Shown here piece by piece: positions 37,538 to 62,802 of a stretch of 64,000 nt of DNA. The DNA is from a virus. The stretch lies in the IMG/VR virus record IMGVR_UViG_3300027806_000001, positions 119,469 to 183,468 of that record; one strand, 5' to 3'. Below the pieces are notes generated by a model, which ran no database searches, was not told the DNA's origin, and saw only the letters and a list, made by a program, of their open reading frames with translations. Numbering within the stretch: position 1 is the first letter of the stretch; the number at the start of each line of letters is the position of its first letter. A program made the translations under genes and the position numbers.

Positions 37538-38632
37538 TCATTGCGGCGCGCCGGAACGTCCCAGCGCATCCTCGATCATACCAAGCAAGGTGTCGGAGTC
37601 AAGGCTCGCGGCGTCCTTTCCTTCCGGCAGCAGCACCGTGGTGCAGCCCCCTGCGACCTGCTTTCGGAGTCGCTCGATGCAGCCGTAGATCCGGCCGTTG
37701 GCCGCGGCCTCGGACTCGATCAGGAAGACGATCCGGCCGTCCTTGAACCGGGCGGCCAGCAGCTCCTCCTGCATGGGCCTGGGGTACATGCCGAAGGTCG
37801 AGACGCCGGCCGCCCCGCAGGCGATCGCCGACAGGGTGCCCTCGGAGACCAGGCAGAAGGATCCGCCCGAGAACGCCGCGGCCTCGTCCAGCCGGTACAC
37901 GGTCGTGCCGGTGGCGTACCCCGGCGCGTTCAGGTACTTCCTGATGACCTGCTTGCCGGTGACGGGGTCCTTAGGGATCTCGCCCACGTACCTGGCCAGC
38001 CATCCGTGCCACGCGCCCTGCTGGATGTTGGGGATGATGATTCGGTTCTCGGGAGTGACCAGGTGCCAGTTGCCGGCGCCGTCCTGGATGCTCCTCTTCC
38101 ACGGGCTGCGGCTGCAGTAGACGAACCCGTACTCGTCGGACAGCAGGTCCAGGTCGAACCCTCGGCCGGCCAGGTACTGCGCCGCCGGATGGTCCGACGG
38201 CAGTCCGTTGACCGGGGTCAGGTCCTGCGGGTCGCCCGGCAGGTCCATCCGGTGGTGCGCGCCGGAACGGGCCTCCTGCAGGGCGTGCTCCTGCAGCCGG
38301 GGACCGCCCCTCAGGATGTCGAACAGGTCGACCTTGCAGTCCTCGTTCCAGCACTTCGTGCAGGAGAAGACCCGCCGGTTGGCCTTGGTGCAGAACACGC
38401 CCCACATGTGGCCGACGTAGAACCGGCCGCGCGTGTCCCCGCACTCCGGGCAGTTGACCGAGTAGGTCTCGCCCCAGTCCCTCCACTCGATGAAGCCGCG
38501 GGGCCTGTCCGCGGCGTACGAGTCCAGGTCGATCCGGATCTCGTACGCCGCGGGGGACCCGGGATTGGTGACGTGCACGTGGCCGAAGCAGTTGCCGAGG
38601 GCCTCGCGCAGGTCGGGGTTCAGGTAGGTCAT
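37538..38632 (-). CDS. DnaG-like primase (zinc finger plus TOPRIM) with degenerate acidic motifs
   Basis: CPECGDTRGRFYV...CTKC zinc finger; RIIIPN; KYLN; LVSEGTLSA; FLIESE; GKDAA; ATGA-coupled to DnaB. Confidence 0.8.
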   Translation of the reverse strand: MTYLNPDLREALGNCFGHVHVTNPGSPAAYEIRIDLDSYAADRPRGFIEWRDWGETYSVNCPECGDTRGRFYVGHMWGVFCTKANRRVFSCTKCWNEDCKVDLFDILRGGPRLQEHALQEARSGAHHRMDLPGDPQDLTPVNGLPSDHPAAQYLAGRGFDLDLLSDEYGFVYCSRSPWKRSIQDGAGNWHLVTPENRIIIPNIQQGAWHGWLARYVGEIPKDPVTGKQVIRKYLNAPGYATGTTVYRLDEAAAFSGGSFCLVSEGTLSAIACGAAGVSTFGMYPRPMQEELLAARFKDGRIVFLIESEAAANGRIYGCIERLRKQVAGGCTTVLLPEGKDAASLDSDTLLGMIEDALGRSGAPQ

Positions 38633-40068
38633 CCCAGGTTGCTCCTCACCACGTCGTCGTACCACGGCGCCTCGGCCTTCGGGGCCCTGGACCGGGATCC
38701 CTCGACCTTCATGGTCTCCGTGTTGATGTCCCTCTCGTCGACGGTGCGCCACACCGAGTGGGCGCCGTCCATCTGGATCAGCATGTCCCTGAAGGGCTCG
38801 CCGTTGCGGATCTTCGGGGCGTTGATCCAGGCCAGGTGGCTCTCCTTGTCGCGGTTGCCGACGCAGATCACGGTGTCCATGTAGTGGTGCAGGGTCCTGC
38901 ACATGAACGCGTCCGTGGGCTGCGGCTTGTTGCGGGGACCCTTGGCCGAGGCCTCGGTGCCCAGCTGGTGGAACAGGAACATGTTGACCTTGAGGGCGTC
39001 CCCGGTCTTGCGGAGGTCGTCGGCGATGCGGTTCATCGTCTTCGTGGTCTCCGCCTCCGGGATGTTCCTGGCGGCCATGAAGTTGTTGGTCATGGGGCCC
39101 AGCCAGTCGATGCCGATGTACTCGGGGTTGAACCCGTCGTCCTGCGACCGCTTGACGATGTCCGCGATCTCGGCGGCCCCTCCGCAGCCGCCTCCGTGGG
39201 TCCTGGCGGCCTCGAGCTGGTCGACGATCCGGATGCGGCCCCTGAGCTTGCCCTTGATCTCGTCGTACTTCGCGCGCATGGCGCCGTCGGCTCCGAACTC
39301 GCCCGGGCCTATGCCCTGGAACGCGCCGACGGCGTAGCCCATGGCGCAGGCGTAGATGCGGTTCGTGATGCCCGGGGTGGCCCCCTGCTCGTACGTGATG
39401 ATCAGGCTCTTCCGGCCGATCAGGGCCGTCGTGGTCGCGATCTGCACGTTGGTCAGGGTCTTGCCGCCGCCGGACGGGGCGAGGAACAGCGCGGTCTCGC
39501 CTGGGATCGCCCCGCCGCTGGTCACCCTGTCGATGTAGTCCACGCCCCACGGGGTGCGCTTCAGCGCGGACAGCAGCGGCTCGTCCCCGGCGAACGGGTC
39601 GATGAAGGCCGCCTTGCTGATCGACGCCTTGGCGATCTCCCGGTTCAGGTCCGAGATCTGCCCGATCAGGTCCGGGCTGTCCGACAGCGCCGTGGCCATG
39701 GGCCGGATCTTCCTGTCCAGTATGAACCTGGCCAGGCAGTCCAGCACGTGGCCCTGGAGGTCGTCCAGCGGGCCCTGGTGGTCGAAGTAGACCCACCTGA
39801 CCAGGTCGCAGAAGGCCATGGCGTCGTCCTCCCTCACCGAGCCCGACATCACGAAGTCGTTCTCGAAGGTCGAGACCAGCACCTGGTACGGCATCTCCTT
39901 CGCGCAGGACAGGTGCCACTTCTTGCCCATGACGAACGACAGCCTCAGGGCCACCTCGGGGCGCAGGAAGTCCTTCTCGTCCAGCTTCTGCATGGCCGTG
40001 GCCATGACCTCCGGCATCCTCAGGAAACCGAGGGCCAGCCATCTGACGTCAAGATTCGCGGTGTTCAC
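38629..40068 (-). CDS. dnaB: DnaB-like replicative helicase
   Basis: Walker A APSGGGKT, ITYEQ, Walker B IGIDWL, LFHQL, KIRNG. Confidence 0.9.
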   Translation of the reverse strand: MNTANLDVRWLALGFLRMPEVMATAMQKLDEKDFLRPEVALRLSFVMGKKWHLSCAKEMPYQVLVSTFENDFVMSGSVREDDAMAFCDLVRWVYFDHQGPLDDLQGHVLDCLARFILDRKIRPMATALSDSPDLIGQISDLNREIAKASISKAAFIDPFAGDEPLLSALKRTPWGVDYIDRVTSGGAIPGETALFLAPSGGGKTLTNVQIATTTALIGRKSLIITYEQGATPGITNRIYACAMGYAVGAFQGIGPGEFGADGAMRAKYDEIKGKLRGRIRIVDQLEAARTHGGGCGGAAEIADIVKRSQDDGFNPEYIGIDWLGPMTNNFMAARNIPEAETTKTMNRIADDLRKTGDALKVNMFLFHQLGTEASAKGPRNKPQPTDAFMCRTLHHYMDTVICVGNRDKESHLAWINAPKIRNGEPFRDMLIQMDGAHSVWRTVDERDINTETMKVEGSRSRAPKAEAPWYDDVVRSNLG

Positions 40069-47027: not shown

Positions 47028-50000
47028 TCAGGCGATGTTCGCGGAATATGCCGGCATTCCCGGCACGGTCCTGATCAGCCACACGCCTCGATCGTTGTTG
47101 TCCACGTTGGACGGGGTCATTATCGTCGCAGGCAGGTCCGTCTGGCCGGCGTCGGTCCTGGAGAGGGACACGACGTTCGGAGCAACGGTGATGCGCCAGA
47201 TGTACCTCGGCACCATGGATCCCACGACCATGCCTCCGCTGACGACCATGCGGGCGGCCTGGTTCAGCTGGAGCCGGTCTACGGGCTGCGAGACGCTGCC
47301 GGCCTGGTTGGAGCAGGGCCGGACCTTCTTGTCGTTCGAGATCCTCGACCACTCGTCGATGGCCCGCTGCATGAAGTGGTCGTCGGCCACCGGCTGGTTG
47401 AAGTACTGGATGAACTTCGCCCCCGCCAGGAACGAGTGGTAGCAGATCTCGTTGAAGTACTTGGCTCCGCCGGAGTCCGTGCCGTACCGGCTGAAGCTGT
47501 TCTGCGCCACAGGGGAGCAGATCCACGGCGCCAGGTCCTGCCAGGCCTGCGGATAGGACCGCAGCATGCCTCGAAGCCTCACGCAGTCGGTGACGAACGC
47601 CATGTAGAGGGCGCTGGGCATGGCCGTCGCTCCGGCGGTCCAGGCGTACCTCTGGGCGTCCGTGGTCGGCGACGGGACGTAGCCGTAGCCTGAGTAGAAG
47701 CCTCCCGACAGCTCGCCGTAGAGCACCGGCGCCGCGCCGATGTCCGGCATGGCGTTCACCTTGGGCCCGGAGTAGTGGCCGTTGCTCTCGAAGACGTACC
47801 TGCCCTCCTCGACGCTCAGCGGAAACTTGGCGTAGTTGTAGTACCCAGGCATCTGCCCGGTGGCGTCCAAGTAGGCCGGTAGCCCGGCCCACTTGCCAAG
47901 GTTGTGCTGGATGCAGGTCATCGCCTCCAGGACGGAGGTCCACGCATGCCATATGGCCCTGGACTCGTCCGTGCCGATGCCCCACGGGGACCTGAAGTCC
48001 TGCCTCGAGGAGATGTTGGTGTAGATCCCCATCAGCGACCTGGCCGCGGCGACCTTGTCGGCAGGCGTCGGGATGGTCGCGCCGAACTGAGCCCGGATGG
48101 CCTGGTAGTAGTCGAAGAACAGCTCCGCGAAGGACTTGCCCTGGTACACAGGGGTCGTGCCGAACCTGACGTCGTCGACGATCGCGACCGTCCTGCGGGG
48201 ATCGGGAACGGTCTTCCAGCTCGTGTTCGGGTTGGTCGTCCAGCCGGCAGGCAGGCCGTTGACGTCGAACGTGCCGTCGTAGGCGTTGTACGGCGAACCC
48301 AGGCCCAGGCCGTTCCAGCCCTCCCAGTCGTCGCAGACCAAGTTGATCTCGGCTCCCCGCTGGCGCAGGGCGGACAGGGTGGCCGTGATCGATGCTCCGC
48401 AGTGGGCGGTGCTGGTGTAGGCCCACGGCGTCATGAACCTCAGCGGGCTGGGATCGCCGTAACCGACGATGTTGCCGGTATAGGTCGTGCCGTCGGAGGT
48501 CGCGGCGTAGTAGTTGTTGAGGTTCAGTTCCTCGTTCGGAGGGGACTCGTACATCCAGTAGGTCGGCAGGATCGCCCGCCTGTTTGGCGGCCGGGACATG
48601 ATCTCGTTCACCAGGTTGTCGAGCGCGGTGCCCGAAAGGGCGGCTCCCGGCCCCGGAGGACGGATCCCTGGAACGTTGACCAAGGGCACCACGTCCTTGA
48701 TCGCTGTTCCGTTGGATGTAGTGCCAAGAACGTTGTTGTTGGTCCAGCATGCAGACCAGACCCTCTGGTTCTCGCCGAGGCCGGGACTGGAGGAGTTGAT
48801 GTCGGCGGGCAGTACCTGGATGCTGACGTAGTCGTCGGGGTAGGTGTTGCCTGCCCAGCTGGGGGATTCGATCGAGCCTCCCTGCAGGGCCCGGATGCGC
48901 TGCACCAGATCCAGCATCAGCAGCTCGAGTCCGTCCTTGATTGCCTGGGCCGTGGCGGGCAGGGCCCAGTAGGCGTCGTCCGAGGTCGAGACGGTCTGGC
49001 CGGGCATGAACCTGGCCGCGTAGGCGGCGCGGATGGCCAGCTGGGAGGTCCTGGTGGGATCTCCGACCGGGGCCAGCGCCGAGAACAACAGGGTGCTGTG
49101 CTCGCTCCACGGGTGATGCACGACGACCGCGTCGGCGCCCTTGAGCAGGGCTGGGACGACGCAGTTGCCGATGATCTGGGCCGGGTGGGTGAATGTGTAG
49201 TCCCCGACTCCGGAGTTGGACGAGACGTTCAGCAGCTCGAACGACCTCATGCAGAGCCGGACGACCGCGACGGATTCCTTGGACGGGTTGTCGGCCTTGA
49301 ACGCCTGGATGGCGCCCATGACGTCCTCGGACATCATCCGGTCGGCCTGGTCGTCGTCGACTATGAATGAGGCCATCCGCACGCTCTGCCTCAGCACGGC
49401 GGCCGCGAGGTCGGAGTCCGCCAGGACGTCGGCGGCCTGGTACCCGATCCACCTGGAGGCGGCGTCGCGGGTCGCGGAATCCGCGCGGTCGATGCGGACG
49501 TAGTCGCCCTCGCAGTTGGGGTTGAGCGGAGAGCCGAGGTCGCAGAGCAGGGGCTCCATCCTGGGGACGTCCAGGAAGCCCCACTTCTTGGCCGGGTAGG
49601 CCGCGCGCACCGCCTGCAGGCAGGACTTCATCGAGGCGATCGTCGAGGCCCTGGTGGCGTACGGAGGGACCTGCGGTTCGTAGAGCGGTCCGCCTTGCAG
49701 CAGGGAAACGTACGGGGTGGCAAAGTCCAGCAGGACCATCTCCGAGGAGGCCACGGTCGGCAGCACCCCGAGGGACAGCCCTCCGGTGCCCGCTATGCGG
49801 GCAAGCAGTTCGGCCGAATCGATCGTGCCGAGCGTAGAGTCGTGCGTCTGGTTGGCCTTGGCTTGCGGGATCATGCAGCAGCGCTTCGCCCCGAGGACGG
49901 TGAACTGCGGGAGGCCGGTCTCGTAGGGCAGCTCTGAGACGTAGACGTCGACCTCCCGCATGACCGGGAGCTTCGCGGATGGAGGAGCCGCCAGCGACAC

Positions 50001-51710
50001 GAAGTCCGCCAGGAACTGCACGAAGGCCGAGAACGACGGCCGGCGCACCTGGGTGTCCCAGTAGGTGTTGCCTTCCGGCGTCCAGTAGCCTTCCGAGTAG
50101 GTGGCCGGGTTGGCCAGGAAGCTCGTCTTGTTGAACGCTGGACGATACGAGTCGAAAACGGCGTAGGTCACGCGGGCGTACTGCGTTATGTCGGAGCCGT
50201 TGTAGGCGTAGTGGACGCTGCCTCCGCCGAAGATCTCGTGGCCTACCGCGATCAGCGCCGGCGTCTTGACGTAGACGCCCTTGTGCTGCTCGCGGCCCTG
50301 CTTCAGGTTGAAGTAGTTCCTGTAGTTGTCGGCCAGGTTGTAGAGGGCGTCGAGCCTGTAGTGCGGCGTGTAGTAGGTGACCCTGCCGGCCAGGATCTCG
50401 TCCAGGAGGTTTCTCCTGGCCGCGCCGCTGGCCACGACGTGAGTGCCTCCGAGCGGCTCCTTGGACGCCTGGACCGGGTAGTTGGAGTCCTGCACGTGGA
50501 ACAGCTTGCCGGCCTGCTCGTTCGACAGGAAATCCTTGAACCCCGGATCGCCGAGATCGGGATCGGAGAAGCGCAGCCAGTAGTAGCCAGCCGAAAACTT
50601 TCTCCACTCGGACTGCGTGGCCTGCGGAGATGGAATGGATCCAAGTCCGGAGTTTGGCGCGGTCATAGTCAGGCGAGGACGGGACTCGATGAAGACCTCG
50701 ATGCCCGCCTGCTCCAGCTGGGTGGCGATGTACCAGTCCGACAGCTCGTGGATGTCCGAGCGGCTGTCCGCCAGTTGCCTGAACAGGGACAGGGTGGACG
50801 GGGTGGCCGCCTCGCTGCCGACGTCGAGCGTGACGTACAGCCTGCCCGAGCCGGGGGTGCGGCCCCGCATGGCCTTGAAGTCCTCGACCAGGTCGTCCAG
50901 GAGCGCCTTGTAGGCTGTGTCGCGTTCCGCGGCGGTGGCCCCCAGGGAGTCCCAGATGGCGATCGTCTTGCCCCGCCAGACGGGATCGCCGGCAAACCCC
51001 TCGTGGTAGATCATCACGTTGGACGGTTCGAGGATAGGCGGCCGGCTGCCCGGCACCATGTTTCCCTCGATCAGGGACCGGATGGCCTGCGTATAGCCCA
51101 TCCACATGGCCGGAGACTGGTACAGCGGAGTGGAGACGCCGGCACTGGTGAACGTCCTCTTGCGCATCGTCCTGCCGAGGCCGTTGCGCTCGAGCAGGCC
51201 GCCTCCGGCCTGGAACCCGCCGTTCGGCCAGTAGATGCAGAAGCTCCTGGCTCCCCACTCGTGAAGGGGCTGGAAGGCCTCGTAGATGGCGTTGTGCCAG
51301 GGGCTCGAGACCTCAGGGTCGGCAGGGATCTTCTCGATCGGATAGGCCCGGCCGGCGATTCCTCCGGACGGGTGCGGGCTGCCCTGCAGGAACGAGATGA
51401 TGTCGGCCTGGGTTCCCAGCCAGTCCGACTGCCCTGGATTGGTGTTGTTGCCGAAGAACCGCTGGAAGAAGATGCGGTTGGCTTCCTGCAGCTCTGGATC
51501 GCCCTGGGGGGGCGCCGTGCCGGCCGCCCTCTGCACAGGCGGAGCGAACCGAGGATCGCCCTCCAGGGGCGCCTTGGGCTGCCTGAGCGCGCCCAGGAAG
51601 TCCTGCGAGATGGTCGGTCCGACCGGGGCAGGCGCCACGGCGCCGTCGTAGACCAGGCCGGCGTCTCGGTGCATGGCGTCGGGATTGCCGGATCTATCGG
51701 GGGTCGTCAT
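47028..51710 (-). CDS. Large multidomain protein with putative glycoside-hydrolase-like barrels (virion depolymerase candidate)
   Basis: 1560 aa, W/Y/D/N-rich; motifs VLLDFATP...VRAAYPAKKWGFL and LVCDDWEGW. Confidence 0.5.
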   Translation of the reverse strand: MTTPDRSGNPDAMHRDAGLVYDGAVAPAPVGPTISQDFLGALRQPKAPLEGDPRFAPPVQRAAGTAPPQGDPELQEANRIFFQRFFGNNTNPGQSDWLGTQADIISFLQGSPHPSGGIAGRAYPIEKIPADPEVSSPWHNAIYEAFQPLHEWGARSFCIYWPNGGFQAGGGLLERNGLGRTMRKRTFTSAGVSTPLYQSPAMWMGYTQAIRSLIEGNMVPGSRPPILEPSNVMIYHEGFAGDPVWRGKTIAIWDSLGATAAERDTAYKALLDDLVEDFKAMRGRTPGSGRLYVTLDVGSEAATPSTLSLFRQLADSRSDIHELSDWYIATQLEQAGIEVFIESRPRLTMTAPNSGLGSIPSPQATQSEWRKFSAGYYWLRFSDPDLGDPGFKDFLSNEQAGKLFHVQDSNYPVQASKEPLGGTHVVASGAARRNLLDEILAGRVTYYTPHYRLDALYNLADNYRNYFNLKQGREQHKGVYVKTPALIAVGHEIFGGGSVHYAYNGSDITQYARVTYAVFDSYRPAFNKTSFLANPATYSEGYWTPEGNTYWDTQVRRPSFSAFVQFLADFVSLAAPPSAKLPVMREVDVYVSELPYETGLPQFTVLGAKRCCMIPQAKANQTHDSTLGTIDSAELLARIAGTGGLSLGVLPTVASSEMVLLDFATPYVSLLQGGPLYEPQVPPYATRASTIASMKSCLQAVRAAYPAKKWGFLDVPRMEPLLCDLGSPLNPNCEGDYVRIDRADSATRDAASRWIGYQAADVLADSDLAAAVLRQSVRMASFIVDDDQADRMMSEDVMGAIQAFKADNPSKESVAVVRLCMRSFELLNVSSNSGVGDYTFTHPAQIIGNCVVPALLKGADAVVVHHPWSEHSTLLFSALAPVGDPTRTSQLAIRAAYAARFMPGQTVSTSDDAYWALPATAQAIKDGLELLMLDLVQRIRALQGGSIESPSWAGNTYPDDYVSIQVLPADINSSSPGLGENQRVWSACWTNNNVLGTTSNGTAIKDVVPLVNVPGIRPPGPGAALSGTALDNLVNEIMSRPPNRRAILPTYWMYESPPNEELNLNNYYAATSDGTTYTGNIVGYGDPSPLRFMTPWAYTSTAHCGASITATLSALRQRGAEINLVCDDWEGWNGLGLGSPYNAYDGTFDVNGLPAGWTTNPNTSWKTVPDPRRTVAIVDDVRFGTTPVYQGKSFAELFFDYYQAIRAQFGATIPTPADKVAAARSLMGIYTNISSRQDFRSPWGIGTDESRAIWHAWTSVLEAMTCIQHNLGKWAGLPAYLDATGQMPGYYNYAKFPLSVEEGRYVFESNGHYSGPKVNAMPDIGAAPVLYGELSGGFYSGYGYVPSPTTDAQRYAWTAGATAMPSALYMAFVTDCVRLRGMLRSYPQAWQDLAPWICSPVAQNSFSRYGTDSGGAKYFNEICYHSFLAGAKFIQYFNQPVADDHFMQRAIDEWSRISNDKKVRPCSNQAGSVSQPVDRLQLNQAARMVVSGGMVVGSMVPRYIWRITVAPNVVSLSRTDAGQTDLPATIMTPSNVDNNDRGVWLIRTVPGMPAYSANIA

Positions 51711-51891
51711 GCAGGGAGTCCTGTTGGAATCGGGAGTCGCCGTGCATTTTACGCTTTTCCTCTTGCCGAGGCTTGACGACCGCCGCGTGCAGGCCGTCGA
51801 AGATCAGTTTGCCGACCACGATCAGGCCGACCGCTATACTGCAGACCAGCTGGACCAGCAGCAGGAAGAACTGCCTCAGCAGGCGGAGCAT
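51694..51891 (-). CDS. Small membrane protein (65 aa)
   Basis: GGAGG RBS; FFLLLVQLVCSIAVGLIVVGKLIF segment. Confidence 0.6.
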   Translation of the reverse strand: MLRLLRQFFLLLVQLVCSIAVGLIVVGKLIFDGLHAAVVKPRQEEKRKMHGDSRFQQDSLHDDPR

Positions 51892-51928
51892 CAGCTCCTC
51901 CGGCCTTTCTCTTTCGGAATTTGAATTC

Positions 51929-54871
51929 ATGAGCGACTCCAAGGATCTAGTGACAGAGGGGATGCCCGAGCTGCCGGACTGGCTCAGGAAGATGGTTTCC
52001 GGCATGAAGTCCCTGAGGGAGATCGACCAGCTCGACGACCTCATCATGACCATGCCGGCGGAGAGGCTGAAGGAGCTGCACGGCCGTTTGGACATGGACC
52101 TGTTCAAGAGGTTCATGGAGTGGCACGTGGCGTCGAACCCCTCCTCGCCCGTCAGGCTGACGTCGCTGCTGAGGATCAACGGCAGGCCGTTCACCCTGTC
52201 GAAGCATCCGTTCTTCGAGCCGATGTTCTACCCGGACCTGCCTGATTCCCTGCTGCTGGTGTGCGCCCGTCAGGTGGGTAAAGCCCTGAGCGTCGATACT
52301 CCGGTGCCCACGCCGTCAGGCAGGTGCAGGATCCGCGACCTGAAGTCCGGCGACTTCGTGCTCGGCATTCACGGAACTCCGGTCAAGGTGCTGGCCGTGT
52401 CTCCAACGTTGCCTGCGCCGGTCTCCTTCAAGGTGTCGTTCAACGACGGCCACTCCGTCCTGGCCTGCGAGGACCACCTGTGGACCGTCCACCACCCCGT
52501 GGGTGGCAGGCAGGGCAGGCGGACCATGAAGATCCGAAGGCAGGAAACGCTGACCACCCGTCAGCTGCTGGACCGCGGAGTCATGATGAAGCAGGAATAC
52601 CGGTTCGCCCTGCCGGAGGTCAAGCCGGTCGAATTCCCGGAGGCCGACCTGCCCATCGACCCCTACGTCCTGGGCGTCTGGCTGGGGGACGGACACAGCT
52701 CATGCGGCCGGATCTCCTCCCACATGGACGACCCCGCGGTCGTGGACGAGGTCTCGAGCGTCTACCCTGTCTACACGGTTGGCAGGTGCAGGGGCTCCAA
52801 GGGGATCTACTTCAACGTGCTGGGATTGAAGAGCCGTCTTCGAGGACTGGGGCTGTTGAACGACAAGCGCATTCCGATCGAATACCTGCGGGCCAGCGTC
52901 TCTCAGCGCCTGGCCTTGCTGCAAGGCCTCATGGACACGGACGGAACCGTGACACCCCGGGGCCTGTGCTCGCTGGGATTCTCGAATCAGCGCCTGGCCG
53001 ACGACGCGTTCGAGCTGCTGTGCAGCCTGGGATTGGTCGTCAAGAGGTCGACCAAGCAGCCGAAGTACCCGGGCTCCAAGCTGCATCACAGGATGAACTT
53101 CACGGCCCGCAGGGACGAGCTGCCGGTGTTTCGCCTGCCGCGAAAGCTGATGAGGATGAGGACGGCGGCAGAAGCCAAGGGCAAGCCGACCCAGACGCGA
53201 TGCAAGAAGATCGTCTCGATCGAGCCTGCGGGCCCGGTCCCCATGTGCTGCATCGAGGTGGACAGCCCGGACGGACTCTATCTTTGCGGGGACAGCTGGA
53301 TCCCCACGCACAACAGCACACACCTGGCGGCGCAAGGGGTGCTGCAGGCGGGGGCGCTGCCGCGCTTCAAGATCCTCTTCATGGCGCCGCAGTTCGAGCA
53401 GATCCGGCGCTTCAGCCACCAGTACATCCGCCAGTTCGTCCACGAGTCCTACATCAAGGACGAGCTGATGGACCGCGGCTCGGTCGACTCGGTCATGCAG
53501 AAGGGGTTCCGCAACGGGTCGGAGCTGTGGTTCTCGTTCGCGAAGATGTCGGTGGACCGCGTCCGCGGCCTCTCGGTCGACGCGATCCGCATCGACGAGG
53601 TGCAGGACATGAACCCGGAGTTCCTGGACATCGTCCGGGAGTGCATGTCGGCGTCCGAGCGCAGGTCGGAGATGTACTCCGGCACCAGCAAGACCGTCGA
53701 CAACACCATCGAGCAGCTGCGCCTCAGGTCCAGCCAGGCGGAGTGGTTCATGAGGTGCGAGTCGTGCTCGCACTGGAACATCCCCACGGTCGAGGGGTCG
53801 GGCCAGGGCCTGGGCGTCATGGAGATGATCCGTCCCGAGGGCATGAGCTGCGCCAAGTGCCGGGCGCTGCTCAGCCCGGAGCGGGGCCAGTGGGTGCACC
53901 GGTACGTGGAGCGGGCCAAGACCTTCCCCAGCTACCACATCCCCCAGGTGATCTGCCCCGTCCACTACGCCAACCCCAAGAACTGGCGCAGCCTGCTGGC
54001 CAAGCGGGACAGGACCTCCACGGCGACGTTCGTCAACGAGGTGCTGGGCGAGGCCTGCGACGCCGGGCAGCGGCTGGTGAGCCTGACGGAGCTCAAGCAG
54101 GCCTGCGTCCTGGGCCCCAACACCCCGGACAGCGCGTCGCTCGCCGACAGGTACGTCGACCGGGTGCTGGGGGTCGACTGGGGCGGCAAGGGCACCAACT
54201 TCCAGTCCTTCACGGCCGCCGCGGTGGCCTGCTACTCGCCGGGCCAGGACCGCATCGACGTTCTGTTCGGCAAGGTATTCCAGGCCCTGATGGACCCGGT
54301 CATCGAGACCAAGGAGGTCATCGACCTGTCCAGCAAGTACTCCTGCACGCTGATCGCCCACGACGTGGCCGTCGCAGGAGAGGTGCGCAGGAGCATCATG
54401 AGGAGCATGGGAGTGCACGACGGCCGCCTGGCGAACTGCCGGTATGCGGCCAGCGGCAGCATCAAGGCCATCCTCCAGCACGTGCCGTCGACCGACATCA
54501 ACCCGACCGAGTACTACAACCTGGACAAGAGCCAGGTCGTGTCCGCGGTCTGCCTGGCCATCAAGAACGGCAGCATCCGCTTCCCGCAGTACGAGACCAT
54601 GAAGGACGACTCGGGGAACAACATGCTGGAGCACTTCCTGGCCGTGTACGAGGAATCCTCCGAGAGCATGTTCGGATCCGAGAAGAGGTTCATCAGGCGC
54701 AACCCCGGCATGCCAGACGACTTCCTGCACGCGGTGGCCTTCGCGGTCATCGTGCTGTGGAGGCGCTATCCGGAGCTGGTGCCCGACCTGATGGACGCGG
54801 TGCTCGACGGGGACGAGCTGGCGTCCTTCGGCGACCCCAGGGCCTACTACATGCCGGGCGACATGGATTGA
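51929..54871 (+). CDS. terL: Terminase large subunit (intein-containing)
   Basis: Spliced Walker A ARQVGK|ST, RVRGLSVDAIRIDEVQD Walker B, SGTSKT, CxxC..CxxC zinc motif, nuclease VLGVDWG and PDDFLHA. Confidence 0.9.
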   Translation: MSDSKDLVTEGMPELPDWLRKMVSGMKSLREIDQLDDLIMTMPAERLKELHGRLDMDLFKRFMEWHVASNPSSPVRLTSLLRINGRPFTLSKHPFFEPMFYPDLPDSLLLVCARQVGKALSVDTPVPTPSGRCRIRDLKSGDFVLGIHGTPVKVLAVSPTLPAPVSFKVSFNDGHSVLACEDHLWTVHHPVGGRQGRRTMKIRRQETLTTRQLLDRGVMMKQEYRFALPEVKPVEFPEADLPIDPYVLGVWLGDGHSSCGRISSHMDDPAVVDEVSSVYPVYTVGRCRGSKGIYFNVLGLKSRLRGLGLLNDKRIPIEYLRASVSQRLALLQGLMDTDGTVTPRGLCSLGFSNQRLADDAFELLCSLGLVVKRSTKQPKYPGSKLHHRMNFTARRDELPVFRLPRKLMRMRTAAEAKGKPTQTRCKKIVSIEPAGPVPMCCIEVDSPDGLYLCGDSWIPTHNSTHLAAQGVLQAGALPRFKILFMAPQFEQIRRFSHQYIRQFVHESYIKDELMDRGSVDSVMQKGFRNGSELWFSFAKMSVDRVRGLSVDAIRIDEVQDMNPEFLDIVRECMSASERRSEMYSGTSKTVDNTIEQLRLRSSQAEWFMRCESCSHWNIPTVEGSGQGLGVMEMIRPEGMSCAKCRALLSPERGQWVHRYVERAKTFPSYHIPQVICPVHYANPKNWRSLLAKRDRTSTATFVNEVLGEACDAGQRLVSLTELKQACVLGPNTPDSASLADRYVDRVLGVDWGGKGTNFQSFTAAAVACYSPGQDRIDVLFGKVFQALMDPVIETKEVIDLSSKYSCTLIAHDVAVAGEVRRSIMRSMGVHDGRLANCRYAASGSIKAILQHVPSTDINPTEYYNLDKSQVVSAVCLAIKNGSIRFPQYETMKDDSGNNMLEHFLAVYEESSESMFGSEKRFIRRNPGMPDDFLHAVAFAVIVLWRRYPELVPDLMDAVLDGDELASFGDPRAYYMPGDMD
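52283..53314 (+). mobile_element. Class 3 intein with LAGLIDADG homing endonuclease (344 aa)
   Basis: Starts with Ala (ALSVDTPVPTP); block B HLW, block F PMCCIEV, block G IPTHN followed by Ser; LAGLIDADG boxes LGVWLGDG and LQGLMDTDG. Confidence 0.95.
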
Positions 54872-54907: not shown

Positions 54908-54991
54908 GCCGCCCCGTCCACTCGATCCTGATCCTTGGGCTCCCTGGAATGGGGCTGCTTTGGAGATTGAGGATTGAGTGGATTGGGCGGC
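54908..54991 (+). other. 22-bp imperfect stem in the intergenic region after terL
   Basis: gccgccccgtccactcgatcct pairs with aggattgagtggattgggcggc (2 G-U pairs, 1 mismatch). Confidence 0.6.
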
Positions 54992-58477: not shown

Positions 58478-59866
58478 TTACTGAGTCGGGGCTGACTGCG
58501 GCATGCCTGGCTGAGGAGCGTTGGCCTGGCCGTACGGAGCCGCGGCGAGCTGCTGCTTGGCCTGACGGGCCTTGGAGGCCGCCAGGGCGGCGTTGGCGTC
58601 CAGGGTCTCGATCTTGGCCATCTCCTTCTTCTCGTTCATGCGCGCTTCAAAGGACTGGTCGTCCTCCCACGGCTCGGGCTTCTGAACGTCTTCCTGAGGC
58701 TGTTCCGGAATCTGGATCGCCGGATGTTCCATCGAGATGGCCGGATCCTGGCTCTCCTTGAACAGGTCCTCGATCAGGTCGTCCGCGGTCGCCGGACGGT
58801 AGCCCGCCTTCTTGACCGCGCTCTCGAAGCGATGGGCCTCCGGCTTGGGCAGGGTGGGCAGGATCTCGGCGGCCTTGGACCGGTCGACGTTGATGCCGTC
58901 CGGCTGGCAGTAGGACAGGAAGTCGTCGCCGGCGACCTTGAGGCCCTTCTCCAGCTGGTGGTCGGTGATGTTGCGCAGGTCGACCGGCGTGCCGGTGGTG
59001 AGGTAGACCACGGTCTCCGTCTGGGAAGCCGCCTTGGAGAAGCTGACGCGGAAGCAGACGTCCACCGGGTGCTGGATGGAAGTGCCCCACTTCGACGCCA
59101 GCTTGTGGCGGACGTCCACGGCCTCGAGGGCCGAGGCGATCAGGTCGCCGCTGCGGCATACCTCGGAGGGCCTGCTGTTGAGGTCCTGCGCGACCTTGAG
59201 CAGCTCGTCCTCGAGCTCGGTCCACTTCGACATGGGGATGGCCGACAGCCGGTCCGTGATGGCCGCCGCGACCTTGGTGTTCAGGTTGAACCAGACCTGG
59301 GGATTGGCCAGGCGGTCCAGGTACATCTTCGCCCGGGTGTCCATGGTCGCCCCCGAGGCGGCCTTGAGCAGCCTGGCGGCGGCCTCCTTCTGGGCGCCGA
59401 TCGGGAACTTGAAGCGGTTCTGGTGGAGCCAGCCGGCGCTGGCCGCCGCGGCCTCCTTGGTGTGGCAGGGGCAGCGCTCGATGCGCTGGCCGCGGTAGTC
59501 GAACGAGAGGGCGTACGAGACGGGGATCTCCTTGACCTCGAAGGCGCGCTTGATCGCCTGCACGTCGTCCACGATGCCCCAGACCTTGGCCGCCTTGACG
59601 AGCCTGTCCTCGGCTTGTGGACTGGCCGGCGCCGAGGTACACTGGTTCCCGTAGAAGTAGAGAGCAGAGCACCAGCAATTGGCCTTGCTGTCCAGGGCGA
59701 ACTTCCGGTTCGACTGGTCCGCGAAGGCCGCCGCAGGCAGCCCGTCGGCCGCCTCGCGGTCCAGGACCTGGGCCGACTTGACGTATTCCGGCATGTCGAC
59801 CCGACGAATGAACGCGTTGTAGTACCTACGGGAGACGTCGTCGGTCATGTCGATCCAGAGGCTCAT
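58478..59866 (-). CDS. Probable head-associated protein with DUF6582-like motifs (start uncertain)
   Basis: GLPAAAFADQSNRKFAL...ANCWCSALYF and a second ERCPCHT..AAAAS..W unit; Q/P-rich tail. Confidence 0.55.
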   Translation of the reverse strand: MSLWIDMTDDVSRRYYNAFIRRVDMPEYVKSAQVLDREAADGLPAAAFADQSNRKFALDSKANCWCSALYFYGNQCTSAPASPQAEDRLVKAAKVWGIVDDVQAIKRAFEVKEIPVSYALSFDYRGQRIERCPCHTKEAAAASAGWLHQNRFKFPIGAQKEAAARLLKAASGATMDTRAKMYLDRLANPQVWFNLNTKVAAAITDRLSAIPMSKWTELEDELLKVAQDLNSRPSEVCRSGDLIASALEAVDVRHKLASKWGTSIQHPVDVCFRVSFSKAASQTETVVYLTTGTPVDLRNITDHQLEKGLKVAGDDFLSYCQPDGINVDRSKAAEILPTLPKPEAHRFESAVKKAGYRPATADDLIEDLFKESQDPAISMEHPAIQIPEQPQEDVQKPEPWEDDQSFEARMNEKKEMAKIETLDANAALAASKARQAKQQLAAAPYGQANAPQPGMPQSAPTQ

Positions 59867-62534
59867 AGACGGTATTCCTTCGGAAGGGTTCTACTCTTCC
59901 CTGCATTATACGAAAGTCCTGGAATTGCTGGGAGCAGGGGAATCCTGCGTCCCGGGTTCCAAGGTCCGGTGCCCTGCGTGCAAGACGGCCACCATGACCG
60001 TCTTCGAGCTGGACCACATCGGCGCCTGGATGCACTGCTCGCGGTGCAGCCTGGCCGGGGACGGGATCCGCATGTACGGTGCAGCTTACAGGATCTCGGA
60101 TCCGGAGGAGCTGCTGGAGCGCGTCGCGGGCGACCTCAAGGCGCGCAACCTGGCCCCCGAGGACCTGTCGGCCTACTGCAAGACCTACGACTTCCTGTAC
60201 AACAGGGTCGACAGGCTGTGGAGCCGGGCCAGGGCGGCCATGGCCGGCCAGGCCAACCGCATGGGCGCCGGCCGGCTGCACGAGCTGAACCTCTGGCTGA
60301 GCCAGGACGTCTTCGACCGCGGGCTGGCCAAGTGGGTCGGCTTTGCCTTCAAGAGCGAGGCCGAGGAGATGCTGGACTGCAAGATCGCCGGGATTCCCAA
60401 GAAGCACGAGGGGCTGCTGGTGGTCCCGTTCCACCTGCGGCCAGGCCTGATGGCCGGCTTCGGCTTCATCGGAGCCTCGGACCAGCTGGCGTACGTCAAC
60501 CTGCTGCAGGGGCACGAGGCGGGGGTCTGCGGCCTGCCGGCCTGCGTCGACGCCGACGACACCAAGGTCTACGTGATGCAGCACCCCATGCAGGCCCTCC
60601 GCATAGCCCACAAGTGCGCCGTGGAGGGCTACCGGAAGATCCGCGCCGTGGCCAAGTCCCCCATGGGCCAGCTGGATCCCGCCACCCTGCTGGGCATGGA
60701 CCAGATCGCCTGGATCGACCTGCCCGAGACGTCGGTGCTCAAGGCCTGCGCCAAGGACCGCAACTTCAAGGTCATGCAGCTGGACACGCCGTACGTGTGG
60801 CGGCCGGCCGAGAAGACGTCCAGGCTCTGGGAGAACTCCCTGATGCCGGTGATCCACAGGACCGTCGACGAGACGCCGCGGCACGGCCCGGTGGACTTCC
60901 TGGCCGGCCACCTGGCGGCCATGGGCGTCCTGGCGGCGCGAGGCGAGGTCGAGGCCATGGAGCTGACCCAGTTCGAGCGGAACCTGCTGCTGGTGTCCTG
61001 CACCAACGAGGATCTGCGGGAGAAGATGAAGGACATCGTCTCGGCGTCGCCGATGGGCTCGGCGCCGATCATGGTCGACAAGAGGATCATCGTCGAGAGG
61101 GACGGCAAGCTCTGGGCCCAGGGATCCCGCGAGGTGTCGGACGAGATGGTGTGCGACGTCATAGTCCGCATCCAGCACATCTGCCGGTCGTCCGTCTCCG
61201 GCGAGGCGTCGCTGTTCGGCAAGATGTCCACGGGGGCGGTAGAGGTGGAGTTCCAGCTGCCGGAGGCCTGGCTGCGGGACGAACCGGCCAAGACCCTGGC
61301 CCGGCTGGCCGCCAAGGCCAACCTGTCGAGGCAGCCGTTCCTGGCCGACTCGATCGCCAGGAAGTACCTCGACATCCTGGTGCGCATCAGCTGCCCGGAG
61401 GTCCACTCGGTGCAGGAGCACGTCGGGTTCGACCAGGACGGCCTGCGGTTCAGCCTGCCGAGGATGTGCATCTCCTCCGACTCGATCCGGGCCGGCGTGC
61501 CGTTCGTCATGTCGGACGGGGAGCTGCCCGCGGCCTCGGCCGAGATCGACCCCCAGGCCAAGCTCACGTCCATAGCCGGGATCTTCCGCCCCGGGGCCGA
61601 GAACGCCTGCTACCTGGCCGCCATGGCCTCGGTCATCTCGGGCTGCCACGCCGCCAGGTCGGGCCCCAGGGGGGCGGGTACGATGCTGGTGGGCGAGAAG
61701 GGCGAGCTGGCCGAGTACGTCTTCGACCTGATCCGGATGGACCTGGGCCTCGAGGCGGTGGTCCTGGGGTCGCGCGCCGAGATGGACGCAGCCCTGCGCA
61801 TGTCGGCCGGGCACCACGTCCCGGTGGCGATCGACGCCCTCAGGTCGGCTCCGCGGCTCGTCGCGGACTGGCTGGAGGGCTCGGGCCGCAGCACCCTGAT
61901 GCTCGCCTCGCCCATGACGGCGTGCAGCCTCGGGGCCGATCCCGACTGGAACTTCGTCAGGGCCAACGTGGAGTTCCGCGCCGAGGGCAGGGGCCTGCTG
62001 AACAGCGAGCTCTTCTTTCCCTTCGCCATGCAGTACTCCATCACCATGGGCGGAGGTCCGGCGAGGCAGCTGCTGGAGTCGCTGAAGTACCTGTCGGACT
62101 CCCTCGGCGGCGACAGGTCGGCCCTGGACCAGGCCGCCCGGTGCCTGTCCTCGTGCGGGCTGGTCAACGCCCGGTCCCCGGGCATCCAGCTGATGAGCTT
62201 CCTCAACGAGGGCGTCGAGGCCGGCATGTTCAAGACCTTCACCGGCGAGGCGTCGGCCAAGCGGAAGTACGTCGTGCTGCGCGGCATCGACGACACCGTG
62301 TCCATCGACCTGACGGCCCTGCTGGGCCAGATGAGGTTCTACCACCTGCCGGTGCGCACCTGGACGGCGTCCGTCGAGCATCTCAAGATGCTCGGCGCCG
62401 AGGAGCTGCAGCACGAAGGCGGCACCCTGCTGAGGTTCAGGAAGCCGCTGTGGAACACCCTGGTGGCCGCGGTGAAGCGCATGAAGTCGCTGCGCCGCGC
62501 CTTCCTGTCGGAGCTGGCCGCTACCTCTCGATGA
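59847..62534 (+). CDS. Large DnaG-like protein (zinc-binding domain plus degenerate TOPRIM) with unknown C-terminal region (895 aa)
   Basis: CPAC...WMHCSRCSLAGDGI...S.PEELL..V; LVVPF...G.MAGFG; VYVMQHPMQAL. Confidence 0.65.
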   Translation: MSIQRLIDGIPSEGFYSSLHYTKVLELLGAGESCVPGSKVRCPACKTATMTVFELDHIGAWMHCSRCSLAGDGIRMYGAAYRISDPEELLERVAGDLKARNLAPEDLSAYCKTYDFLYNRVDRLWSRARAAMAGQANRMGAGRLHELNLWLSQDVFDRGLAKWVGFAFKSEAEEMLDCKIAGIPKKHEGLLVVPFHLRPGLMAGFGFIGASDQLAYVNLLQGHEAGVCGLPACVDADDTKVYVMQHPMQALRIAHKCAVEGYRKIRAVAKSPMGQLDPATLLGMDQIAWIDLPETSVLKACAKDRNFKVMQLDTPYVWRPAEKTSRLWENSLMPVIHRTVDETPRHGPVDFLAGHLAAMGVLAARGEVEAMELTQFERNLLLVSCTNEDLREKMKDIVSASPMGSAPIMVDKRIIVERDGKLWAQGSREVSDEMVCDVIVRIQHICRSSVSGEASLFGKMSTGAVEVEFQLPEAWLRDEPAKTLARLAAKANLSRQPFLADSIARKYLDILVRISCPEVHSVQEHVGFDQDGLRFSLPRMCISSDSIRAGVPFVMSDGELPAASAEIDPQAKLTSIAGIFRPGAENACYLAAMASVISGCHAARSGPRGAGTMLVGEKGELAEYVFDLIRMDLGLEAVVLGSRAEMDAALRMSAGHHVPVAIDALRSAPRLVADWLEGSGRSTLMLASPMTACSLGADPDWNFVRANVEFRAEGRGLLNSELFFPFAMQYSITMGGGPARQLLESLKYLSDSLGGDRSALDQAARCLSSCGLVNARSPGIQLMSFLNEGVEAGMFKTFTGEASAKRKYVVLRGIDDTVSIDLTALLGQMRFYHLPVRTWTASVEHLKMLGAEELQHEGGTLLRFRKPLWNTLVAAVKRMKSLRRAFLSELAATSR

Positions 62535-62802
62535 ACGTCATGCCCTCGGAGAAGACGAGGGCGTCCACCCCGAGCACGCGCTTGATCCGGTCGATCTCGG
62601 CGTCGGGGGCGCGACGCAGGTTGGCCAGCAGGCCGGACGCGGCCTCGGCCGCCATCTTCCTGCGCTCGCACTTGGAGCAGGTCCCGGGGTGGGCGCCGCT
62701 GGCGTGGGCGTGGGCGTCGCGGACCGACGGCGAGACGCCGCGGACGGCGGCGTTGTTCATCAGGTCGAGCAGGGTGGAGTGGGTGACTGGCTGTCGTCTC
62801 AT
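62521..62802 (-). CDS. Hypothetical protein with CxxC (93 aa)
   Basis: GTCSKCERR; convergent with the 895-aa gene. Confidence 0.65.
   Translation of the reverse strand: MRRQPVTHSTLLDLMNNAAVRGVSPSVRDAHAHASGAHPGTCSKCERRKMAAEAASGLLANLRRAPDAEIDRIKRVLGVDALVFSEGMTFIER

Follow-up and report, generated by a model that had tools for sequence, protein, structure and literature searches.

A phage protein family with DnaG-like and Cch/Rep-like folds and without canonical catalytic residues, encoded beside head and terminase genes

The gene and its protein

In this study, we analyzed the final 64 kb of an uncultured phage record of 183,468 bp that bears terminal repeats (IMG/VR record IMGVR_UViG_3300027806_000001, positions 119,469 to 183,468; hereafter the window), and focused on one of its genes, P0001, which lies on the plus strand near the end of the window. 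Near-identical DNA is present in freshwater and lake metagenomes from many studies, and the guanine-plus-cytosine (GC) content of the genome is 66%. The protein appears to descend from a phage or mobile-element primase-helicase, joining a DnaG-type primase fold to a module of the Cch/Rep type, and has probably lost the catalytic activity of both halves. The gene and its main parts are as follows.

59847-62534, plus strand: P0001, apparently dead primase-helicase-like gene; open reading frame (ORF) with ATG start, 895 amino acids; zinc ribbon, DnaG-like core and Cch/Rep-like module
59958-60101, plus strand: C4 zinc ribbon, residues 38-85 (CPxC ... W..C..C...GD.I), the best-conserved element of the family
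60189-61055, plus strand: DnaG RNA-polymerase-domain fold including TOPRIM and the C-terminal helical subdomain, residues 115-403 (VIA-align, Foldseek)
61056-62468, plus strand: Cch/SaPI Rep-like module, residues 404-874, with a beta-rich N-domain, an AAA+-like core, a helical lid and a winged-helix-like domain

A first-pass annotation of the DNA had proposed this ORF, and it held at the same coordinates. The GC fractions at the three codon positions are 0.63, 0.46 and 0.95, a coding signature for a 66% GC genome; since a third-position value (GC3) of 0.95 is typical of coding DNA in such a genome, P0001 is a real gene. Its start codon was confirmed by homologues, 14 of 21 of which keep the N-terminal MSIQR[LI]I. 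All motif strings quoted in the annotation were found where it had placed them: the zinc motif CPAC (C42, C45) ... HCSRC (C64, C67) ... GDGI, the DnaG-like PG/GF string LVVPFHLRPGLMAGFGF at residues 191-207, VYVMQHPMQAL at residues 241-251 and LVGEKGEL at residues 614-621. Beyond the four elements that make up the Cch/Rep-like module, the protein carries a conserved basic C-terminal helix (residues 866-894). P0001 is also one of the few plus-strand genes, as had been stated, with only four of the 44 genes called in the window on that strand.

Fold and homology

Taken as a single sequence, P0001 had no significant match in Pfam, PHROGs, NCBIfam or the sequences of all Protein Data Bank (PDB) chains, and two family profiles found nothing among PDB sequences apart from Aquifex primase at E 0.53. 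Such results would be expected if the resemblance to primases and helicases were due to chance or were a modelling artefact on an unrelated fold. On the other hand, a profile built from 70 family members aligned residues 15-206 of P0001 to residues 10-219 of Escherichia coli DnaG (hhalign probability 96%, E 4e-9) and placed C42, C45, C64 and C67 upon the DnaG zinc ligands. Only this diverse profile matched; a narrow profile of 22 sequences gave no hhalign match to DnaG. Thus, a zinc-binding domain with four ligands is present in the family, with a C4 rather than a CHC2 ligand set. In an alignment of 137 sequences (22 close and 115 distant members), from which all column counts given here were taken, W61, C64 and C67 were near-invariant, and C42 and C45 were present wherever the N-terminus had been called.

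The structure of P0001 was predicted with AF2 from 84 diverse sequences (pLDDT 91.8). An earlier model from 22 close sequences was mediocre (pLDDT 72.6), and its structural matches were the same, so that two independent models agree. Using VIA-align, we found that residues 115-403 matched residues 115-422 of E. coli DnaG (1eqn_B) at Z 14.2 with 249 of 313 residues aligned, followed by 5vaz, 3b39 and 1dd9 (Z about 14), T4 gp61 (12.6), T7 gp4 (11.3) and Twinkle (10.0). Foldseek against the PDB also returned the E. coli DnaG core (E 1.8e-6), as well as T4 gp61, mycobacterial and Pseudomonas DnaG, and Twinkle. For the second half, residues 404-874 matched residues 23-557 of SaPIbov1 Rep (8tch_A) at Z 13.6 with 401 of 484 residues aligned, and residues 403-867 matched residues 4-547 of SCCmec Cch (5dgk_B) at Z 11.1 with 396 residues aligned; the corresponding Foldseek E values were 5.5e-9 and 1.4e-7. 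The matches at Z 13-14, which extend over whole domains, are well above the background of 7-8 quoted for the tool, and the whole-domain scores are clear of the generic AAA+ matches at Z 6-8 further down the list. Among the predicted viral structures of BFVD, the best matches were phage proteins of 870-1016 amino acids named 'Toprim domain-containing', 'DUF927 domain-containing', 'DNA helicase' and 'Replication protein B' (E 2e-13 to 1e-9).

The models that define the known families were not matched. P0001 had no match to the Pfam DnaG models, and in one distant member TIGR01391 reached 14.5 bits against a cut-off of 283.6. Pfam DUF927 (PF06048) and HTH_56 (PF18662) matched neither P0001 nor the rest of the genome, and hhalign of the family against two true DUF927 proteins gave a probability below 1%.

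Together, these comparisons agree with the DnaG-like N-terminus read in the first-pass annotation and with its guess of a primase(-helicase) fold (DnaG zinc-binding domain, TOPRIM, and DUF927 or SF3 helicase). The zinc-binding domain is matched at the profile level and the core at the level of fold (Z 14.2 to 12), and chance resemblance, the outcome that would have spoken against the annotation, is not what was found. We are highly confident that P0001 is a true DnaG-Cch/DUF927-type derivative, and consider the chance of an artefact to be negligible.

Loss of catalytic residues

The sites where catalytic residues would be expected are listed below.

60567-60599, plus strand: end of TOPRIM strand 1, VYVMQHPMQAL, residues 241-251; DnaG counterpart VVEGYMDVVAL; strand 240-244, helix 247-260
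60714-60794, plus strand: rest of the TOPRIM acidic cluster, residues 290-316; D291-L-P-E294 at the DnaG DxD and D313-T-P-Y at the DnaG DPD
61677-61718, plus strand: degenerate P-loop, residues 611-624, GTMLVGEKGELAEY; strand, four-residue loop and helix, with no GK[ST]
61812-61847, plus strand: strand at the Walker B position, residues 656-667, HHVPVAIDALRS; a single Asp and no acidic pair

In the primase half, the E-G-x-x-D that follows strand 1 in DnaG corresponds to Q245-H246-P247-M248-Q249 in P0001, in a TOPRIM register that was taken from the strand order of the model (strands 285-290 and 308-311) rather than from residue-level superposition and that could be off by one. The claim that Gln had replaced the Glu and Asp of this motif stood in part. 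Both glutamines are there, Q245 at the Glu position and Q249 at the Asp position, and Q249 is shared by 21 of the 22 members of the close clade. Q245 is a feature of this sequence, its position being variable among close homologues (P in 10, Q, D and T in three each, E in two and S in one). Every member of the close clade has H246-P247, and 77 of the 115 distant members have Asp at position 246. As for the remaining acidic cluster, D291 was found in 21 and D/E294 and D/E313 in all 22 of the close clade, and none of the three is conserved in the distant members, where the DxD position is occupied by Pro, Arg or others. No acidic TOPRIM position is therefore conserved across the whole family.

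In the helicase half, no more than four loop residues (E-K-G-E) separate the AAA+ strand (residues 611-615) from the next helix. The string LVGNKGSLAE of a look-alike in another genome is, by alignment, the same degenerate P-loop. The degenerate P-loop-like string noted in the first-pass annotation is thus real and lacks GK[ST]; that motif was absent from the region in 135 of 137 members, the two exceptions being out of register, and in 67 of the 115 distant members the loop is shorter by three more residues. On the strand at the Walker B position, H656 and P659 are conserved, and position 663 is D in 19 of 22 close members and D or E in 41 of 115 distant ones, with no second acid after it. 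A candidate arginine finger, R705, is invariant only within the close clade and occurs in 26 of the 115 other members.

From this pattern, P0001 is probably non-catalytic. It might still be an enzyme with non-canonical active sites, for example a primase or nucleotidyl-transferase using His246 (Asp246 in distant members) and the remaining acids, or a nucleotide-independent DNA remodeller. The surroundings of the former active site are conserved above expectation for an unconstrained region, with H246-P247, Q249 and the acids kept in the close clade and Asp at position 246 in most distant members. Against such an enzyme stand the TOPRIM cluster without any family-wide acid, the truncated P-loop without Lys-Ser/Thr in nearly all members, and the presence of a separate primase and helicase in the genome (see below), and we regard it as highly improbable.

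Size and conservation of the family

A search of a collection of 5.8 billion proteins yielded 21 clusters of homologues with 43-91% identity to P0001, all about 840-895 amino acids long and on contigs of up to 179 kb. An exhaustive phmmer search of 1.84 billion representatives found 222 family proteins at E<=1e-3; among the 150 matches listed, most were 780-970 amino acids long and 15-35% identical to P0001. Clustered at 50% identity, the family numbers at least 222 clusters, with members in large freshwater phages and in Planctomycetota-associated contigs. No cultured-phage homologue was found: tblastn of P0001 and of the gene next to it against 50,697 phage records gave nothing significant, and megablast with 14 kb of the window found no match in cultured phages. 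The family is large, and it is anonymous, having no name in the databases.

Its consensus strings are CPxC...GxWxxCxxCxxxGDxIEL and LVxPFxDxPGRIxGFxFxG, which are recognisably DnaG-like, and VxAxxDPxxALxLQ. The zinc ribbon and structural Gly, Pro and Trp positions are strongly conserved, and judging from this the family is under purifying selection. What is conserved everywhere is this ribbon and those scattered positions, which suggests that the fold is kept for binding or scaffolding rather than for catalysis.

Neighbouring genes

Two genes accompany P0001 and its homologues.

58478-59866, minus strand: divergent partner gene, 462 amino acids; head-to-head with P0001 and overlapping it by 20 nucleotides (59847-59866); rich in Lys-x-Ala
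51773-54871, plus strand: large terminase gene terL, with a GpA-type ATPase and an intein (Pfam GpA_ATPase and LAGLIDADG_3; PHROG terminase families)

The start of the partner gene was confirmed by its homologues, and the 20-nucleotide overlap is kept in all close relatives. A search of a protein atlas and a profile search of the PDB gave no function for the partner. Its sequence contains 14 Lys-x-Ala against 4.6 expected (z 4.9), and the same excess was observed in all eight homologues tested (z 4.3-7.2); it is probably a protease-processed head-core protein and resembles a substrate of the prohead protease.

We then compared the gene order in 24 related viral contigs. Nineteen of them span both sides of the P0001 homologue, and all 19 share one order: a g57758-like gene (leftward), a g58478-like partner gene (leftward), the P0001 homologue (rightward), terL (leftward), and sbcD and sbcC (rightward). 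The succession of partner, P0001 homologue and terL is seen in loci L002-L014 and L016-L022, L014 showing the order as far as terL, and four more related loci that are cut on one side fit it as far as they reach. In the genome studied here, the block from g54978 (at 54978) to the end of P0001 (62534) is inverted relative to all related contigs (L009, L013 and others), which puts terL 5 kb upstream of P0001 and brings P0001 beside g62805. The arrangement extends to distant loci, in which the family members are only about 17-25% identical to P0001. Here, the trio was found in eight of 11 (L030, L031, L035-L039 and L041, carried by contigs that reach 208 kb); the family gene and the divergent partner homologue overlap in L030 and L031 and are about 15-125 nucleotides apart in the others, and a terL homologue, 37-39% identical to that of this phage, is convergent downstream. 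In close relatives and in eight of 11 distant loci, the family gene is adjacent to terL, in convergent orientation rather than upstream and co-oriented as is usual for a small terminase gene; in the genome studied here, 5 kb separate the two. The statement that P0001 sits beside virion genes and away from the replication cluster agreed with these data, as its neighbours are head and packaging genes and the replication genes are 20 kb off.

A stable place between a head-core gene and terL across deep divergence, together with the lack of a recognisable small terminase, is the reason for considering a role in packaging. The small terminase models Phage_Nu1 and Terminase_2 had no match in the genome. 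Small ORFs by terL, including those upstream of it on its own strand in relatives (terL neighbourhoods of L009, L030, L031, L035, L039 and L041), had no PHROG match and are not conserved. P0001 itself had no Pfam or PHROG match to known TerS families, and its fold is of the primase plus helicase type. The small terminase that was not found leaves a slot open and proves nothing.

The other three distant loci, L026, L027 and L032, have neither partner nor terL. In L026, from a Pirellulales metagenome-assembled genome (MAG; JBGTJT010000539.1, 1-7511), the family member directly follows a DUF927/HTH_56 helicase, a primase that is a homologue of the separate primase of this phage (E 1e-19), and PolA, a family-A polymerase of 536 amino acids; this module recalls the SCCmec operon of a polymerase-like primase and Cch2 (PMC7581432). 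In L032, a DUF927 protein of 840 amino acids is encoded 2.4 kb upstream of the family member. In L027, from a Schlesneria MAG (JAYUFF010000376.1, 5542-12643), the family member stands amid host-like genes; upstream of it is a DUF1016-like gene, and 2.5 kb downstream a gene for a reverse transcriptase-RNase H. The contig showed no recognisable phage genes.

The contexts of L026 and L032, and the fact that the closest solved relatives (8tch and 5dgk) are origin-binding initiator helicases, are the basis for a different role, in which P0001 would initiate replication or help to load the helicase. Its winged helix and zinc ribbon would attach it to the phage origin, in the manner of SaPI Rep, Cch and P4 alpha, and it would bring in the DnaB-like helicase and the primase that are encoded separately, a task that would need no ATPase or primase activity of its own. 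The absence of any other recognisable initiator or loader from the window also fits. However, in this phage, in its close relatives and in eight of 11 distant loci the gene lies with a head gene and terL, far from PolA, primase and DnaB; no iterons, AT-rich origin-like region or origin-like repeats flank P0001; and such initiators normally need ATP for melting DNA and loading. We therefore consider this role rather unlikely, and note that gene order alone cannot decide between packaging and replication.

The head genes next to P0001 also bear on the possibility that the fold serves as a decoy or as cargo, that is, a protein packaged in the virion and delivered along with the DNA, or a mimic titrating some factor of host replication or defence. 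Phages with a virion-borne RNA polymerase of this kind package many enzymes, including the primase and helicases of phage Arash (PMC10585845), and a bacterial contig (L027) carries one homologue in the vicinity of a gene for a reverse transcriptase-RNase H. No PADLOC or anti-defence evidence came up, no search aimed at it having been made. In contrast to its head-protein neighbour, P0001 is not enriched in Lys-x-Ala (3 against 4.1 expected), and Arash, which was tried as a guide, has no homologue: a whole-genome profile search found none, and its gp217 'DNA helicase' is an unrelated protein of 472 amino acids. The virion proteome of Arash is thus not transferable to the P0001 family, and a decoy or cargo role appears distinctly unlikely.

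Several further observations concern the surroundings of P0001. No sigma-70-like promoter or intrinsic terminator was found near the gene, and a candidate phage promoter motif (GCTAAA-N-GTTA type) does not occur there. Contigs from RNA libraries of three freshwater studies span 55.97-60.2 kb, including the partner gene, its neighbours and the first 350 nucleotides of P0001, and also hold three short internal pieces of P0001. This coverage fits transcription of P0001, short of proof, and gives no timing; neither the uncovered parts of the gene nor any ranking of expression is usable. Downstream, the next 270 nucleotides are coding on the opposite strand. The last 14 nucleotides of P0001 are shared with an ORF of 93 amino acids at 62521-62802 (minus strand), which has high GC3, encodes a CSKC motif and a stretch rich in His, and has no PHROG match. 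Next to terL, a protein of 1560 amino acids (47028-51710, minus strand) had no Pfam or PHROG match, and nothing corresponding to it lies between terL and sbcD in the related contigs. In L026, the replication module is followed by host-like FGE-sulfatase genes, and it may be the edge of a prophage or another mobile element.

Replication genes of the phage

A separate primase and a DnaB-like helicase are encoded side by side, 20 kb from P0001.

37538-38632, minus strand: primase, 364 amino acids (phrog_47 DNA primase, E 4.6e-19), adjoining the DnaB-like helicase
38629-40068: DnaB-like helicase (phrog_19, E 2.8e-19)

PolA with a UDG-like domain, an SF2 helicase and SbcCD are encoded near this pair, and models for AEP Prim-Pol, DNAG_N, Toprim_2 and DUF927 had no match anywhere in the genome. 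Read from its sequence, the 364-residue protein keeps the TOPRIM positions: Glu after the first strand (SEGTLS), an acidic E-S-E at the DxD, and KD. It is a credible and probably working primase of the phage. The first-pass annotation had called it degenerate and had asked how the phage primes replication at all; the phrog_47 match beside a DnaB-like helicase and the retained residues weaken both. Because this pair exists, priming need not involve P0001, and for this genome it does not have to be explained by P0001.

Discussion

Taken together, the data suggest the following history and function. P0001 would descend from a phage or mobile-element primase-helicase in which a DnaG-type zinc ribbon and TOPRIM primase were fused to a DUF927/Cch-type self-loading helicase. 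Both catalytic activities would have been lost, and the protein would have been kept as a non-catalytic DNA-binding scaffold that neither makes primers nor unwinds DNA. The zinc ribbon and the primase groove may grip single strands and the C-terminal winged helix duplex DNA. We infer that it acts by binding, because the regions through which active relatives contact DNA are those best kept or best modelled in P0001. Such a scaffold might work where replicated DNA passes to the packaging machinery, and could be the DNA-recognition or recruiting partner of the large terminase, which is usually the role of the small terminase. This whole statement is offered tentatively, at somewhat less than an even chance. 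That the process is linked to packaging or to the head, rather than to replication, is a possibility in which our confidence is low. The most specific version, in which the family is the terminase's missing DNA-recognition subunit in this lineage of phages of about 180-210 kb, a replication-initiator primase-helicase stripped of both activities and re-used to select DNA and present it to the packaging motor, is unlikely. If true, it would represent a new kind of 'small' terminase whose gene is locked head-to-head with the gene of a prohead-core protein, and a direct evolutionary bridge between the machineries of origin recognition and packaging-site recognition.

A number of points weigh against a binding scaffold at the packaging hand-off. 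The inversion in this genome already parts P0001 from terL, and three of 11 distant loci (L026, L027 and L032) lack both partner and terL. L026 and L032 put the family member in or near a replication module, which fits a role in replication at least as well, and large phages can keep a gene order simply by inheritance, without any shared function. Small terminases are typically short proteins of another fold, encoded upstream of terL and co-oriented with it. With regard to the loss of activity, the close clade retains D291, D/E294 and D/E313 and most distant members carry an Asp adjoining the lost Glu; from these acids, P0001 may have kept some metal binding. The residue register of TOPRIM comes from secondary-structure order only, and DNA binding, oligomeric state and lack of activity of P0001 are all inferred.

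The first-pass annotation had proposed that a primase(-helicase) fold was repurposed for another job, such as origin binding, packaging or transcription. The fold is present, and both of its halves lack the canonical catalytic residues, in P0001 and throughout the family, in line with the general idea; nothing points to transcription.

The fold type and the primase-helicase fusion are already known. New are the loss, throughout the family, of the catalytic residues of both halves with the full architecture kept, the size and anonymity of the family, and its fixed place in the head and packaging neighbourhood of the phage lineage of about 180-210 kb. Few replication machines are understood as well as the primase-helicase fusions. 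Cases in which one half is silent, such as animal Twinkle and herpesvirus UL8, taught how replisomes are built, and the P0001 family appears to have silenced both. Its place between a probably protease-processed head protein and terL, with no recognisable small terminase, provides a concrete and testable hypothesis. The family is also an annotation trap, as structure-based pipelines would label P0001 a primase or a helicase.

Comparison with known systems

Like bacterial DnaG (E. coli 1eqn, 3b39 and 1dd9; Aquifex 2au3), T4 gp61 and T7 gp4, P0001 has a zinc-binding domain followed by a complete RNA-polymerase domain, and DnaG-like motifs (PF..D.PGR..GF and GD.IEL) are recognisable in the family. 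It differs from DnaG in its C4 rather than CHC2 zinc ligands, in the replacement or lack of conservation of the catalytic Glu and Asp, in having a Cch-like module where DnaG has its DnaB-binding C-terminal domain, and in falling below the thresholds of TIGR01391 and the Pfam DnaG models. Twinkle is also a primase-helicase, and in animals its primase-like half is considered inactive. With human Twinkle (7t8b/7t8c; Z 10.0), P0001 shares a DnaG-type primase fold kept without primase chemistry; however, Twinkle has a working RecA-type motor like that of DnaB and T7 gp4, whereas the helicase half of P0001 is of the AAA+/Cch type with its motifs missing.

SaPIbov1 Rep (8tch) and SCCmec Cch (5dgk) present an N-domain, an AAA+-type core, a lid and a winged helix in the same order as P0001. 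Identity to them is about 10% with no similarity at the profile level, and P0001 has a truncated nucleotide-binding loop and no Walker B pair; moreover, neither Rep nor Cch has a primase domain fused in front.

The closest in overall layout are the DnaG(Toprim)-DUF927 fusions of phages and mobile elements, described as putative replicative primase-helicases of phages (Kazlauskas et al., 2016; PMC4889955). These are proteins of about 850-1000 amino acids with the primase in front and a DUF927/Cch-type helicase and a C-terminal DNA-binding domain behind; examples are A0A1B0WMN5 of Flavobacterium phage 23T (903 amino acids, 'Toprim domain-containing protein') and the DUF927 proteins A0A6J5MH03 and A0A6J7WYP4 of uncultured phages. 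The fusions are recognised by the sequence models for Toprim and DUF927 and are presumed to be functional replicative enzymes, whereas the P0001 family matches neither model, lacks the TOPRIM Glu and DxD as well as Walker A and B, and is mostly found by terL instead of in a replication module. An analogy, across an unrelated fold and virus group, is provided by herpesvirus UL8, which the passage of PMC4889955 citing Kazlauskas and Venclovas (2014) gives as a B-family polymerase that has been inactivated and serves the helicase-primase as a non-catalytic subunit; there too, the fold of a viral replication enzyme is retained as a non-catalytic scaffold. Since P0001 lacks the defining catalytic features of both DnaG primases and DUF927/Cch helicases and is not recognised by their sequence models, it is best placed as a protein derived from these families rather than as a member of either.

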